From Escherichia coli (GTDB lineage: Bacteria; Pseudomonadota; Gammaproteobacteria; Enterobacterales; Enterobacteriaceae), in NCBI RefSeq assembly GCF_002854065.1, contig NZ_CP024147.1: a stretch of 64,000 nt of DNA. One strand, written 5' to 3'. The notes beneath the pieces are model-generated. The model saw only the letters and a list, made by a program, of their open reading frames with translations, had not been told where the DNA came from and did not search any database. The translations under genes and the position numbers were made by a program. How positions within the stretch are numbered: position 1 is the stretch's first letter; the number at the start of each line of letters is the position of its first letter. This document shows, in pieces, positions 35,469-53,885 of the stretch.

Positions 35469-35632
35469 GCCTTATCTCCACCTCTTCGCGTCATTACGCG
35501 ATATTCATTAAAGTGGCGAAAGCATGCAGCAATCACAAAAAAATGAAAATAACAAAAAGAGAAAACACTTTTGCCATTTTGCTAACAAACAGGAAGGAGA
35601 TGCGAGGGAGAACGCGCTCCCTCGAGAGGAAA

Positions 35633-35722
35633 TCAGTGCAGCGCGGCAGTCAAACCCACGGCTACGATCAAACCGAGGACGATAATCGTTGTTACCAGTG
35701 AAAATTTAAGGTCGGTGCTCAT
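35633..35722 (-). CDS. ynhF: 29-aa small membrane protein YnhF
   Basis: Hand-translated minus strand: MSTDLKFSLVTTIIVLGLIVAVGLTAALH, stop TGA; below ORF-track cutoff. Confidence 0.75.
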   Translation of the reverse strand: MSTDLKFSLVTTIIVLGLIVAVGLTAALH

Positions 35723-35959
35723 CAAGTTTTCTCCTTTTTTATTACCACACAAAAAGTGATATTACGCATTTTTACACACTGTGATGAAAAAATCTCCCGT
35801 CATTTATAATGATAAGTGTTTTTACCACTTCCCCTTTTCGTCAAGATCGGCCAAAATTCCACGCTTACACTATTTGCGTACTGGCCATTGACCCCTTCCT
35901 GACGCTCCGTGTCGTTTTTCCGGCGTACCGCAACACTTTTGTTGTGCGTAAGGTGTGTA

Positions 35960-35975
35960 AAGGCAAACGTTTACC
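35960..35975. promoter_or_regulatory. PUR box (PurR operator O1) in purR leader
   Basis: aaggcaaacgtttacc matches PurR operator core GCAAACGTTT. Confidence 0.6.
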
Positions 35976-36020
35976 TTGCGATTTTGCAGGAGCTGAAGTT
36001 AGGGTCTGGAGTGAAATGGA

Positions 36021-40749: not shown

Positions 40750-40770
40750 TCGCCCCCGCTCAGGGGGCGA
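40750..40770. terminator. bidirectional terminator hairpin between cfa and ribC
   Basis: tcgcccc-cgctca-gggggcga stem-loop. Confidence 0.65.
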
Positions 40771-44611: not shown

Positions 44612-44688
44612 GCGTTCATAGCTCAGTTGGTTAGAGCACCACCTTGACATGGTGGGGGTCGTTGGTTCGAGTCCAATTGAACGCACCA
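44612..44688 (+). tRNA. valV: tRNA-Val (anticodon GAC)
   Basis: gcgttcatagctcagttggttagagcacc...cttGACat...ggttcgagtcc...acgcacca; cloverleaf with encoded CCA. Confidence 0.95.
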
Positions 44689-44692
44689 TCCT

Positions 44693-44769
44693 GCGTCCGT
44701 AGCTCAGTTGGTTAGAGCACCACCTTGACATGGTGGGGGTCGGTGGTTCGAGTCCACTCGGACGCACCA
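44693..44769 (+). tRNA. valW: tRNA-Val (anticodon GAC), second copy
   Basis: Near-identical copy 4 nt downstream of valV; differs in acceptor/T-arm bases. Confidence 0.95.
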
Positions 44770-44876
44770 GATTTTCTTAATCTGGTCTTCTCCTTTTTCC
44801 CTCTGCTTCTTCTCTGTATCCAATACGTTAAAAGATTTACACTGTCTTCGTATGCGTTATCAGAAGGAGAATCGCT

Positions 44877-45182
44877 ATGGCAACTTTGTTACAACTTCAT
44901 TTTGCTTTTAATGGCCCATTTGGCGACGCAATGGCTGAGCAGCTTAAACCACTTGCTGAGTCGATTAATCAGGAACCTGGTTTTCTGTGGAAGGTATGGA
45001 CAGAAAGTGAAAAGAACCACGAAGCCGGCGGGATCTACCTTTTCACTGATGAAAAAAGCGCCCTTGCCTATCTGGAAAAACACACTGCCCGACTGAAAAA
45101 TCTCGGCGTTGAGGAAGTTGTCGCCAAAGTTTTCGATGTCAATGAGCCACTGAGTCAAATCAATCAGGCAAAACTCGCCTGA
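44877..45182 (+). CDS. ydhR: putative monooxygenase YdhR (dimeric alpha/beta barrel)
   Basis: 101-aa [27 protein letters not shown]...; recognised. Confidence 0.9.
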
Positions 45183-46923: not shown

Positions 46924-47736
46924 TCAGCACTCAACAAACTGATGCTGTTCATTAAGACGATAGCGGACTCCGGCTCGAATATTGTTTTCACCTTCAATGG
47001 CGACGGCGAAACGAACTCTTTCGCCGTCATGATATGCCAGTGCGGCGCTTCCTCCTGGCCCGAGAATAATTGAGTCGACCACGCCCGTGCTCACTACCGT
47101 TGAATTTTCACCGCTGGCAATGATGTGTACATTGTCGCCGCTGTTGACAATTTTGGCGTTTGCGCCAAAGCTGGCGATTTGCACCAGGTCACCATTACTG
47201 GCGACATGACATCGTTCACCCAATGTACAAACGCGTACTCGCATTCCGGTATTCGCAATCCGACTGCTATCTCCAGCGCTGCTTATCCGCGAAGAATTGC
47301 CGGTTACAGCAACCCGTGCGCGCTCACCGGAGCTGCCAATGTGACTGTTAAAGCCGACACTTCCAATCCGCACGCTATAACCCATACTGGCAATTTGTAC
47401 AGCATACCCAGCGGTTGCGATTCTGGCGTTATCCTCACAACAGCCGATGCGAGCATGATCGTCGCTGCGGGCAAACTGACTGCAAAATGCTCTCTCTCCG
47501 GGATCTGTGGCCAGTTTTTGCATAGAGGAAACTTCCTGATGCGCGAAGTTTTCATCCGCCAGCCATTTTTTCCACGCATACTCAACAAGACTCTCCGCCC
47601 AGTCCGTATATCCTTCCTCAATCAGTGCATGATGAATATCAGCATAACTACCGCCGCGCGGGAAATGGCGCAGGAACCAGCGATACATCACCGCTCCGAT
47701 ACGCCATTCTCGCAGGTCTGCTCGTGTAATGATCAT
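46924..47736 (-). CDS. ydhT: YdhT (FhuF-like / unknown function), last gene of ydhYVWXUT
   Basis: 270-aa ORF; recognised by position and sequence. Confidence 0.85.
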   Translation of the reverse strand: MIITRADLREWRIGAVMYRWFLRHFPRGGSYADIHHALIEEGYTDWAESLVEYAWKKWLADENFAHQEVSSMQKLATDPGERAFCSQFARSDDHARIGCCEDNARIATAGYAVQIASMGYSVRIGSVGFNSHIGSSGERARVAVTGNSSRISSAGDSSRIANTGMRVRVCTLGERCHVASNGDLVQIASFGANAKIVNSGDNVHIIASGENSTVVSTGVVDSIILGPGGSAALAYHDGERVRFAVAIEGENNIRAGVRYRLNEQHQFVEC

Positions 47737-47739
47737 TCG

Positions 47740-48525
47740 TTAGTGCCGGTGATAGCCATCGACCATGCTTTTAAAGGTTTCGTGTGGCGTACGCCCCGTG
47801 GTGCAAAGATAAAGATGACCGAAGATAAAAAAGAGGCTTATAAATGCCAGAGCAAAATGCGCCTGCAATAACCAGTATCTTACGCCAGGAAACACATCTC
47901 CCACGGCTTGCGGATAGAGACACAGCAGCCCCGTCAATAGTAACAACGGCAGCAATCCATACATGACACCAACATAGGCAACCTGCTGTAAGGGATTAAA
48001 TTTAGACTGGGTTGTTGCCGGGAAAGGATGTTCTTCCCCCTGCATAATGCCAAACAAATAAAATCGCGTTTGTTTTGCCGCCCGCTCCAGCCAACCCTGA
48101 CGACGAATGCGATAGTGGTGGCCATTACCCCCAACGGCATTGATCAGAACAAAGCCGTGCCAGCATGCCAGTAACAAAAATCCGCAAACTTCATGCACCG
48201 CAACCAGACTTTTAACCGCAGTTGCGCCCACCAGCGCAAAGTGATTTATCAGCCCACTTGCCAGCAACAATACAAAGAGTAACGCATTCGACCAGTGCCA
48301 TAATCTGACCGCTTTGCTGTAAAGATAAATCTTCTCACCATGATCGGTGGCTGATTTCTTCACGCCACGAGCACGAAGCAAGGCGTGCAGCCCCAGCACC
48401 AACCACATCCCAACCAGCAATACTCCGGCAATGATCAACCACACCGGCCAAAATTCGGGAGTGAACTGTGGCACATAGTTCGCTAACTGGCTCTGAAACT
48501 GTTCAGCATGTTGCGACGGGTTCAT
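47740..48525 (-). CDS. ydhU: PhsC/NrfD-like membrane cytochrome b subunit
   Basis: 261-aa polytopic membrane ORF. Confidence 0.88.
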   Translation of the reverse strand: MNPSQHAEQFQSQLANYVPQFTPEFWPVWLIIAGVLLVGMWLVLGLHALLRARGVKKSATDHGEKIYLYSKAVRLWHWSNALLFVLLLASGLINHFALVGATAVKSLVAVHEVCGFLLLACWHGFVLINAVGGNGHHYRIRRQGWLERAAKQTRFYLFGIMQGEEHPFPATTQSKFNPLQQVAYVGVMYGLLPLLLLTGLLCLYPQAVGDVFPGVRYWLLQAHFALAFISLFFIFGHLYLCTTGRTPHETFKSMVDGYHRH

Positions 48526-49190
48526 ACATTTTCCTTTTTAATCAAATGTTGACCGAACCGGCGATACAGATGCGGTTTCCCGGCACCAGGTAGCTGATAT
48601 TGATAGTATTTATTATCCTGCAACCACACCTGAATTTCTGGGCTATCTTCGCGACCAAAGATCAATGCGTGTTCCGGGCAGGCGCTGACGCAAATGGGCG
48701 GAAAGCCTTTTGCCAGTCGGGACTCAGCGCAGAAATCACATTTATCTGCCACTTTAGTGACAGGGTTAAGGTAGCGAACCTGGTACGGACAAGCGCCAAT
48801 GCAATAACTGCAGCCGATGCACTGCGATTTTTCTACCCGCACGATCCCCTGCTCATCACGCCACGACGCCCCTGTCGGGCATACGTCGATGCACGGAGCA
48901 TCTTCGCAGTGCTGACATGACTGGCGAAAAAAGTGATACTGCGTTTCGTTGTCGTTATCGGTGACTGGAATGTGTGCTATCGATAAACGGCTTCCCTGAG
49001 CGGGGACGTGGTTAGTTTTACGGCATGCGCGGGCGCAAATATTACAGCCATTGCACCGTGACTCGTCATGAATCATGGCATACCGAACTTCCTTTTCTTG
49101 CCTCGTGTTCGCTAACAGAGAAGACGCAGAACCAGTAAAAAAGATTACTGTTCCCATCCCCAGAACAAATTTGCGTCGAGTGAAGGACAT
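48522..49190 (-). CDS. ydhX: Tat-exported 4Fe-4S ferredoxin-like protein
   Basis: ORF track 48522..49241; start trimmed to MSFTRRKFVLG twin-arginine signal (222 aa); multiple CxxCxxCxxxCP motifs. Confidence 0.88.
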   Translation of the reverse strand: MSFTRRKFVLGMGTVIFFTGSASSLLANTRQEKEVRYAMIHDESRCNGCNICARACRKTNHVPAQGSRLSIAHIPVTDNDNETQYHFFRQSCQHCEDAPCIDVCPTGASWRDEQGIVRVEKSQCIGCSYCIGACPYQVRYLNPVTKVADKCDFCAESRLAKGFPPICVSACPEHALIFGREDSPEIQVWLQDNKYYQYQLPGAGKPHLYRRFGQHLIKKENV

Positions 49191-49253
49191 CTGATTATCC
49201 CCTAATGCAGTGGCTGCAACTGTCCACCCTATCCATGACATCTCCCTGAAATT

Positions 49254-49901
49254 TCAGGGGTTCTGAAACTGCTCTACCTCGAACCATTCGCATAAGCCAT
49301 AAGCCTTGCCATAGGTCATAAATCGCTCGCTAAACAAGTACAACACCGCCGTCGATGACTCCACCTGCCGTATATCGGCATATTCAGGTGCAACATCCAT
49401 CGCGGCGATCGCGGCTTCAATCTGCGCTTCCTGGAAGTAATATGGCGCTTGCATCAGCATGGCGACTTTGTAAGGACGAGGATACGTCTGGCACTCAAAA
49501 CGAACGGCGTGTGCAATGGCGCGACAAATGTCCTGCTCCACAACTTGCAAAGACATCGCCGCGTAGTTTTCACTCATGGCCTGCGTTGAGTAATAGTAAT
49601 CATCCTGACTTCCCGTCATACAAGCGATATCCGCGTAGTCTCCGTTCTGCTTAATGCTTTCCAGCAAAACTGACAGTTCCTCTTCTGCAACTGAATAGGG
49701 TGGCGAGAGAAACACGGCGCGCGCCACCAGCTGCCCAGCCACAGAATGCTGGCGAATGAACTCTGCCAGGATTTCAGCCGGTTCTGGTTCGGTTACCGTA
49801 TCAACGGGGTGACGCATCCCCTGCAACCATTGCCGCTTCGCCTCGTCAACTTCGCTGACTTTCGCTAACGGCAATTCATCCTGATGGTTCATCTTACCCA
49901 T
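49254..49901 (-). CDS. ydhW: YdhW (unknown function; possible maturation factor for YdhV)
   Basis: 215-aa ORF. Confidence 0.85.
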   Translation of the reverse strand: MGKMNHQDELPLAKVSEVDEAKRQWLQGMRHPVDTVTEPEPAEILAEFIRQHSVAGQLVARAVFLSPPYSVAEEELSVLLESIKQNGDYADIACMTGSQDDYYYSTQAMSENYAAMSLQVVEQDICRAIAHAVRFECQTYPRPYKVAMLMQAPYYFQEAQIEAAIAAMDVAPEYADIRQVESSTAVLYLFSERFMTYGKAYGLCEWFEVEQFQNP

Positions 49902-49904
49902 TCC

Positions 49905-52091
<2,187 letters not shown>

Positions 52092-52504
52092 TCACCGCAT
52101 AACACACATTTCGAGGATTTTTTACTTTCGGTATTTACGGTGGCCATCATCCACGGGCATGCCGTAGTACAGGCGCTACAGCCAATACAACGTTTATGAT
52201 CGACGGTAATACAGCCTTCTTTCTGCTGCCAGGTAATCGCACCAATCGGGCAGACGTTCATGCATTGCGGCTCTTTGCATTGACGGCAGGTGTCCGCGGT
52301 ATAGTTGAGATCGCCATACAGGCCGCCGCCAGAGCCAACCCCGTTGTCGCCAAAGAAATAATTGCGATGGATTTTGATACGGGAGAAGAATGTCCCTACT
52401 GAGCCATCGTTGAAGTTGGTACAAGAGATTTCACAGCGGTGGCAACCCGTGCATCGCGCTCGCTGGGTCACCAGCTCCCCTTTGGGTGTATTTATCAACC
52501 CTAC

Positions 52505-52512
52505 TGTGCCGC
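52505..52512. repeat. left copy of the target-site duplication flanking IS1
   Basis: tgtgccgc immediately 5' of the IS1 left end. Confidence 0.85.
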
Positions 52513-52567
52513 GGTGATGCTGCCAACTTACTGATTTAGTGTATGATGGTGTTTTTGAGGTGCTCCA

Positions 52568-52843
52568 GTGGCTTCTGTTTCTATCAGCTGTCCCTCCTGT
52601 TCAGCTACTGACGGGGTGGTGCGTAACGGCAAAAGCACTGCCGGACATCAGCGCTATCTCTGCTCTCACTGCCGTAAAACATGGCAACTGCAGTTCACTT
52701 ACACCGCTTCTCAACCCGGTACGCACCAGAAAATCATTGATATGGCCATGAATGGCGTTGGATGCCGGGCAACCGCCCGCATTATGGGCGTTGGCCTCAA
52801 CACGATTTTCCGCCATTTAAAAAACTCAGGCCGCAGTCGGTAA
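52568..52843 (+). CDS. insA: IS1 InsA (transposition inhibitor / N-terminal part of transposase)
   Basis: 91-aa [43 protein letters not shown]... Confidence 0.95.
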
Positions 52844-53265
52844 CCTCGCGCATACAGCCGGGCAGTGACGTCATCGTCTGCGCGGAAATGGACGAACAGT
52901 GGGGATACGTCGGGGCTAAATCGCGCCAGCGCTGGCTGTTTTACGCGTATGACAGGCTCCGGAAGACGGTTGTTGCGCACGTATTCGGTGAACGCACTAT
53001 GGCGACGCTGGGGCGTCTTATGAGCCTGCTGTCACCCTTTGACGTGGTGATATGGATGACGGATGGCTGGCCGCTGTATGAATCCCGCCTGAAGGGAAAG
53101 CTGCACGTAATCAGCAAGCGATATACGCAGCGAATTGAGCGGCATAACCTGAATCTGAGGCAGCACCTGGCACGGCTGGGACGGAAGTCGCTGTCGTTCT
53201 CAAAATCGGTGGAGCTGCATGACAAAGTCATCGGGCATTATCTGAACATAAAACACTATCAATAA
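52762..53265 (+). CDS. insB: IS1 InsB (expressed as InsAB' transposase by -1 frameshift at A6C, 52819-52825)
   Basis: 167-aa ORF in -1 frame relative to insA; ttaaaaaac slippery run present. Confidence 0.9.
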
Positions 53266-53280
53266 GTTGGAGTCATTACC

Positions 53281-53288
53281 TGTGCCGC
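53281..53288. repeat. right copy of the target-site duplication flanking IS1
   Basis: tgtgccgc immediately 3' of the IS1 right end. Confidence 0.85.
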
Positions 53289-53631
53289 TATCAATATCTT
53301 CCTGTTTGCAACCCAAAAGTGACAGTAACGCAGGGGCAATTGTTAGACCAGCAAGGCCTTTTCCTGATATACGCAAGAATTCTAATCGCGTTAAGCCAAT
53401 ATCTAATAGTGGACGATCAACCGGGTTCATTTATTTCGCATCCTCTTCGCAAACACAGTGCTGACAATTCAGCAGCCTGATATTAAGCATTCAACTAATA
53501 CGCTGCTGACTCTGTCCTCAACACCAGATATTTTCCCTAACCCGATAGTGTATGAGAAAAGATTTAACGCCGATAAACTAATCCTTTATGGTTAGGAGAA
53601 AAAATAATGTGGTTATTCTGGGCTCTTAACA

Positions 53632-53645: not shown

Positions 53646-53885
53646 TTAAAATTACAAAGCAAGAAATTATAAGTGAACTGATATTTATTATCATTTGAAA
53701 TGAATTTAACTTAAGCGACAATTATTTGTGACGGTCATTGCAGAAAATAAAAATAATATTATCGTTATAAATTAAAACACATATCGAAATTCGTATAATT
53801 TCAGCAGTTGTTATTTAGAATGATTAACTGGACCGCAACTGAAGCAAGAATATCAGGATGAAGCTTATCGCCTCATCCTGAATGG

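Follow-up and report, generated by a model that had tools for sequence, protein, structure and literature searches.

The known IS1 elements, including the K-12/R100-type IS1A, IS1B and IS1R, have in common a length of 768 bp, imperfect terminal repeats of 23 bp, an insA/insB' pair joined by a −1 frameshift at A6C, and a 232-aa InsAB'. The production of InsAB' by frameshifting, its binding to the element ends, the staggered cutting of the target and the repair of the resulting gaps are established IS1 biology, and the insA promoter of IS1 is located in the left terminal repeat (IRL). Insertions of IS1 are classically polar in either orientation, through Rho-dependent termination. An IS1 insertion hot spot in pBR322 was reportedly found by Gamas and co-workers in 1987 to be associated with an IHF site. 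Target duplications of 8–10 bp have been reported for IS1 (PMC3031569). As for the operon concerned here, ydhYVWXUT is described as FNR-regulated in a passage of PMC10845959 that cites Partridge et al. (2008). YdhV is a bis-Mo-MPT enzyme (PMC9103625), and YdhY is described as its small subunit partner in a complex that has no assigned physiological role (PMC13328260).

In the 64-kb stretch of Escherichia coli DNA analyzed here (hereafter, the window), ydhY is interrupted by an IS1 element. We consider it very probable that the source was an IS1B-type copy that this E. coli clade already carried, and that it moved into the gene very recently. The event is an ordinary IS1 transposition with target duplication, the kind of which is already known, and a routine strain-specific mutation whose one unusual feature is its position at what is probably a small, recurrently hit IS1 target. 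On the evidence of its sequence, its inverted repeats and its identity to annotated copies, the element is a complete IS1 of the IS1B-type variant, occupying 768 bp at 52513..53280 on the + strand. Its left and right terminal inverted repeats, IRL (GGTGATGCTGCCAACTTACTGAT; 52513..52535, +) and IRR (ATCAATAAGTTGGAGTCATTACC; 53258..53280, +), pair with each other at 18 of the 23 positions, which is the usual IS1 pattern. The insA gene (52568..52843, +) encodes 91 aa with a zinc-finger N-terminus and scored 41 bits against NCBIfam NF050000, the IS1/IS1595 zinc-binding domain (cut-off 28); InsA is both the repressor and the N-terminal part of the transposase. The insB' frame, the catalytic part of InsAB', is open for 167 codons at 52762..53265 (+), and the programmed −1 frameshift site from insA to insB', AAAAAAC (A6C), lies at 52819..52825 (+). 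When the −1 frameshift at A6C was modelled, a predicted InsAB' of 232 aa was obtained with no internal stop, and this modelled protein scored 243.8 bits against NCBIfam NF033558 (transpos_IS1; cut-off 100) over profile positions 1–199 of 199. Pattern matching further located a promoter-like sequence, CTGCCA-16-TATGAT (52520–52547), that overlaps IRL and faces insA, and, overlapping IRR, a sequence that fits the IHF consensus fully, TATCAATAAGTTG (53257–53269).

Copies that match the element with 100% identity over all 768 bp occur on many E. coli chromosomes and plasmids, where they are annotated as 'IS1-like element IS1B family transposase', and the element is IS1 by every sequence criterion tested. 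A second IS1 end was not found in the window with up to three mismatches allowed; a composite transposon or a second IS1 is thus ruled out there, the window containing a single IS1 only. The original prediction had described a complete 768-bp IS1 with terminal repeats, insA, insB and the A6C site, running opposite to the operon; reading of the sequence, a script and the profile score all agree with the first part, and the strands of insA (+) and ydhY (−) with the second.

The element is flanked by two copies of the 8-bp sequence TGTGCCGC, the left at 52505..52512 and the right at 53281..53288. Both flanks and the first 25 kb of the window were compared by megablast with 5,426 complete E. coli genomes, among which two near-identical relatives were found: CUWW06, from wastewater in Thailand, and 100416, from human stool in the Gambia. 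At this position, the empty sites of these two strains and of K-12 MG1655 carry exactly one copy of TGTGCCGC; in the CUWW06 record, the match to the left flank runs up to position 2545543 and that to the right flank resumes at 2545552, with one 8-bp copy between them. The direct repeat that had been predicted at these two positions is therefore no chance repeat, being single in the nearest relatives. Since base 52504 is a C, as is the last base of IS1, a 9-bp repeat, CTGTGCCGC, around a 767-bp IS1 would also describe the junctions. We favor the notation of 768 bp plus 8 bp, since 768-bp copies elsewhere agree with the element at every base and duplications of 8–10 bp are documented. A length of 8 bp is nevertheless the minority: the other nearby IS1 insertions with a readable duplication all have 9 bp (17/17).

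The structure of the interrupted gene was then read on both sides of the element. IS1, on the + strand, interrupts ydhY, on the − strand, after codon 50. The 5′ fragment, codons 1–50, lies at 53281..53430 (−), and the 3′ fragment, which extends from the second base of codon 48 to the stop and contains all the Cys-rich 4Fe-4S motifs, lies at 52028..52512 (−) and is severed from the promoter and the start codon. Translation from the native start at 53430 would run through 50 native codons and, via IRR, 26 IS1 codons to a stop at 53200–53202, so that the disrupted gene specifies a product of 76 aa without any Fe-S motif. On these reading frames YdhY is inactivated, as had been claimed, since the only product predicted from the native start has no 4Fe-4S cysteine motifs; the Ydh complex (class V WOR / YdhV) is accordingly deprived of its ferredoxin-like small subunit. 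When IS1 and one repeat copy were deleted in silico, a ydhY ORF of 627 nt (208 aa plus stop) was restored. This agrees with the original prediction, and the restored protein is identical to YdhY of CUWW06. It scored 432.9 bits against NF007382, the YdhY equivalog (cut-off 213), over residues 1–208 of 208, and differs from MG1655 YdhY in one residue (V60E). Within the 3′ fragment, an ORF of 156 aa with a TTG start (52028–52498) keeps every Fe-S motif and might conceivably be translated, if transcribed. By eye, codons 1–50 (53281–53430, −) have a signal- or anchor-like look: TRLEFLR resembles a degenerate twin-arginine motif and is followed by a hydrophobic stretch and by LLSLLGC, which resembles a lipobox. 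IS1 parts this N-terminus cleanly from the Fe-S domain.

The genes behind the element were also inspected. Transfer of the CUWW06 annotation placed ydhV at 49905–52007, ydhW at 49254–49892, ydhX at 48522–49190, ydhU at 47740–48525 and ydhT at 46924–47736, all on the − strand. These five genes (46924..52007) are intact ORFs with zero internal stops and at most one amino-acid difference. The first gene, ydhY, lies upstream of ydhV-W-X-U-T on the same strand, beside fumD and pykF; the locus is collinear with those of CUWW06 and MG1655, whose annotation confirms the predicted gene order ydhY-V-W-X-U-T. Operon transcripts from the FNR-dependent promoter, which we take to lie upstream of ydhY, would meet an early stop and then approximately 690 nt of untranslated antisense IS1 RNA. 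Because of this arrangement, the expression of ydhV-W-X-U-T is probably strongly reduced by polarity, as inferred from the sequence alone, and the Ydh module as a whole is likely to be lost or strongly reduced.

Alternatively, the insertion may be non-polar: read-out from IS1 or an internal promoter would keep ydhVWXUT expressed, possibly together with the 156-aa C-terminal YdhY fragment, and only the signal-like N-terminus of YdhY would be lost. This reading is unlikely, but it survives better than the other alternatives considered below. The TTG ORF at 52028–52498, with its complete set of Fe-S motifs, is in its favor, as is the ability of IS1 ends to form hybrid promoters with adjacent DNA, which was reportedly described by Prentki and co-workers in 1986. 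Against it, a consensus scan of the − strand detected no outward promoter-like site across or near the IRL junction, and the polarity of IS1 is classically seen in both orientations. The scan was a simple one, and a weak promoter, whether internal or carried by IS1, could have escaped it and could drive ydhV-T.

We next consider how singular the insertion is. Twenty-two loci were retrieved, and their IS1 junctions were mapped onto the empty-site sequence. Approximately twenty independent IS1 events were found between the 5′ half of ydhV and fumD in complete genomes, including 17 insertions with a readable duplication. Four of the neighboring cases deserve individual description. One is the IS1 shared by C21 and HZDC01, whose duplication TATCAACCC (52493–52501) places its insertion point 10 bp from that of the window. 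Others are the IS1 of STEC388, with the duplication ACTGTGCCG (52503–52511), and that of VG12A2, in the opposite orientation and with the duplication CTGTGCCGC (52504–52512); the insertion points of both are 1 bp from that of the window. The last is the IS1 of 19KM1778, which lies in ydhY approximately 70 bp away. In all of these genomes ydhY is split by a full IS1, as in the window. However, the elements are other IS1 variants (6–45 nucleotide differences), the duplications are of 9 bp and the host lineages are different; these are therefore independent events and not the allele of the window. A further case came from outside the complete genomes: the 76-aa junction-specific fusion peptide is also encoded in a Logan contig, SRR23253413, which has the identical IRR-ydhY junction. 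That contig carries an IS1A-type element, with 7 differences from the IS1 of the window, and the common C allele at 53518, and it therefore represents an independent hit in another lineage. With this contig included, four or more further independent IS1 insertions lie within 20 bp of that in the window; they belong to different variants and run in both orientations.

An apparent orientation bias among the neighboring IS1 copies was rejected. It arose because the search joins pieces on one strand only, and a query with inverted IS1 gave six further genomes, including VG12A2 at the same site. Three IS1-adjacent deletions, each without target duplication, were also seen in the region: ydhY and the 5′ end of ydhV are gone in ESDR8 (empty-site 51738–52722), the deletion in G47-1 extends from just beyond ydhR to the 3′ part of ydhY, and fumD is gone in MS15047 (empty-site 52774–53561). 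In the literature, no link between IS1 and ydhY was found, the two terms co-occurring in one paper only, in unrelated table rows.

These counts were compared with the mean density of IS1, for which 59,329 chromosomal places in the 5,426 genomes were used and the chromosomes were assumed to be of approximately 5 Mb. For the 2.4-kb region, the expectation is approximately 28 genome-occurrences, against approximately 26 seen; a region-wide IS1 enrichment in the ydh locus is thus unsupported, and only a cluster of 5–20 bp stands out. For an interval of 5–20 bp, approximately 0.06–0.24 occurrences are expected, while 2–3 independent events (six genomes) were seen even with the window and the Logan contig excluded. 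Because of this excess, the local cluster at 52493–52512 is probably real, and it fits the known non-random target choice of IS1.

The sequence at the cluster suggests one way in which the site may be chosen. The 60-bp ydhY segment at the insertion has the empty-site sequence GGTGTATTTATCAACCCTACTGTGCCGCTATCAATATCTTCC and holds TATCAATATCTT, the stretch that is relevant to an IHF-directed model. Directly adjoining the target duplication is TATCAATATCTTC (53289..53301, +; 52513 in empty-site coordinates), which in pattern matching agrees with the IHF consensus WATCAANNNNTTR at 8 of the 9 specified positions and resembles the full consensus match TATCAATAAGTTG at IRR. We tentatively suggest, as a possibility that we hold to be rather less probable than its opposite, that the 20-bp stretch at ydhY codons 46–51 (52493–52512) is a sequence- or structure-directed IS1 hot spot, possibly directed by the putative IHF site TATCAATATCTTC mimicking the right end of IS1.

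Selection offers a different account of the recurrence. According to it, the insertion was fixed because the loss of Ydh is advantageous, and the repeated IS1 hits in ydhY and ydhV reflect this advantage and not target preference. The approximately twenty independent IS1 insertions or IS1-adjacent deletions that affect ydhV, ydhY or the upstream region in complete genomes would suit such an account. However, the number of genomes with IS1 in the 2.4 kb is close to what the mean density leads one to expect, many hits fall outside the operon, in fumD or between genes, and clustering within 20 bp or less in both orientations is what target preference predicts, whereas selection would scatter the hits over the coding sequence. 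We therefore regard selection as improbable, more so than a non-polar insertion, and a local target preference of IS1 is the reading retained here.

The age of the insertion can be judged from the close relatives. Base-by-base comparison showed that the window minus 776 bp is collinear with CUWW06, with 8 SNPs and 0 indels in 35,720 bp. In a three-way comparison, 6 private SNPs were counted in the window, 2 in CUWW06 and 7 in 100416. With so few private SNPs each, the three strains are very close, and the insertion is later than their split. The six SNPs private to the window are at 40762, 44108, 45592, 45860, 59222 and 59240. One is intergenic (cfa/ribE), four cause the replacements G66D in ydhQ, Q95H and M185L in ydhS, and F79L in sufS, and one is synonymous in sufS; they are too few to interpret, and sequencing error is possible in any of the three assemblies.

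The empty site itself is widespread. The 400-bp empty-site reconstruction is contiguous in 5381 of the 5426 complete E. coli genomes, and CUWW06 and 100416 are both empty at the insertion position. K-12 MG1655 has an intact ydhY of 627 nt and the same target sequence, and no IS1 was found in the 12 kb examined around its ydhY. The exact filled allele was not found among the 5,426 complete genomes. A Shigella origin, which this absence and the closeness of the flanks to O55:H7 might suggest, was rejected because the window contains one IS1 only and hardly differs from E. coli CUWW06 and 100416. The statement, in the original prediction, that ydhY is intact in MG1655 is correct, the alignment against MG1655 and other E. 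coli that it had proposed as a check confirms the empty site, and its view of a clean, probably recent transposition agrees with the 8 SNPs and 0 indels that separate the window from CUWW06 after the removal of 776 bp. Its description of the event as strain-specific holds in that both sister genomes are empty and this allele is absent elsewhere in the complete genomes, but the event is less singular than was implied, in view of the approximately twenty independent IS1 hits in ydhY, ydhV and the ydhY-fumD spacer.

The same data bear on whether the insertion might be old or imported, that is, whether the ancestor already had it and it was then precisely excised in the relatives, or whether the filled allele was brought in by homologous recombination from another lineage. 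A donor allele does exist in nature, as the strain of SRR23253413 has IS1 at the identical right junction. However, the site is empty in both sister strains and contiguous in nearly all of the complete genomes. Moreover, the flanks belong to the clade of the window, with T at 53518 and not the C of the Logan strain and most other lineages. The element is also the clade's own variant, with 0 differences from the copy in 100416 and 7 from the Logan copy, and precise excision of IS1 is rare. Either form of this scenario is hence very improbable. Equally so is an assembly artefact, in which an IS1 copy was misplaced into a gene that is really intact: IS1 is multi-copy in E. coli (a median of approximately 11 places per genome) and repeats are a classic cause of mis-joins, but a perfect 8-bp duplication that, once removed, leaves an exactly restored gene is not what a mis-join would yield; an independent assembly of a public read set from another strain contains the same IRR-ydhY junction, and genuine IS1 insertions exist 0–2 bp away in complete genomes.

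A very recent transposition from within the clade thus remains the preferred explanation, and the sister strain 100416 (NZ_CM128593.1) provides information on its source. This strain carries a 768/768-identical IS1 approximately 0.5 kb from the insertion in the window; this copy lies in the spacer between ydhY and fumD, is inverted relative to that of the window and has a 9-bp duplication, AATTTCAGC, corresponding to 53797–53805 of the window. Its sequence and position indicate that the same IS1 variant jumped twice in the clade, independently and at sites within 0.5 kb of each other. The identical copy at a different site in a sister strain, together with the presence/absence polymorphism, implies that this exact variant is present in the clade and appears to be mobile there. 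Intragenomic transposition would be the simplest source, with the donor copy lying beyond the view of the 64-kb window. In the proposed course of events, InsAB' would have been produced via the −1 ribosomal frameshift at A6C, would have bound both 23-bp terminal repeats and would have joined the ends of IS1 to staggered cuts in the target DNA. With the cuts 8 bp apart, gap repair would then have generated the duplication TGTGCCGC. The choice of the site would probably have been due to local IS1 target preference rather than to selection.

For annotation and strain genetics, where the practical value of the finding lies, the isolate is best regarded as naturally ydhY-null and as a probable ydhYVWXUT-deficient strain. 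Two near-isogenic relatives with an uninterrupted ydhY exist, namely CUWW06 and 100416, the latter with its own IS1 upstream of the gene. Since the physiological role of Ydh is unassigned (PMC13328260), such natural strain pairs are usable for phenotype comparison. IS1 insertions in E. coli number in the tens of thousands, and this one leaves the view of IS1 or of the operon unchanged; the clustered independent hits provide a small, testable example of IS1 target preference. Elsewhere in the window, Rfam searches at the gathering threshold detected STnc550 at 35630–36020 (−), overlapping cydH upstream of purR; the rydB sRNA at 63661–63721 (−), between sufA and ydiH; two tandem tRNA-Val genes at 44612–44766 (+); and HPnc0260 at 44731–44893 (−), in antisense orientation, where it overlaps both the second tRNA-Val and the 5′ end of ydhR. 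All of these are expected in this region of E. coli.

Compared with the known systems, the element itself is no different from the known IS1, and only the duplication length differs, being 8 bp instead of the usual 9 bp. With respect to the operon, the situation resembles the classical polar IS1 insertions in the gal and lac operons, in which IS1 likewise lies in a promoter-proximal gene and the distal genes are expected to be silent in either orientation; polarity is established for gal and lac, whereas for ydhYVWXUT it is an expectation from the sequence. With respect to the target, the resemblance is to the pBR322 hot spot, in that independent IS1 insertions cluster beside a sequence resembling the IHF consensus and an IS1 end. 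As a difference, the putative IHF site in ydhY agrees with the consensus at only 8 of the 9 specified positions. If the ydhY hot spot is true, it could explain the insertion of independent IS1 variants 0–10 bp apart in five or more lineages, of which two share the identical, unusual 8-bp junction, and it would be a natural chromosomal counterpart of the hot spot in pBR322.
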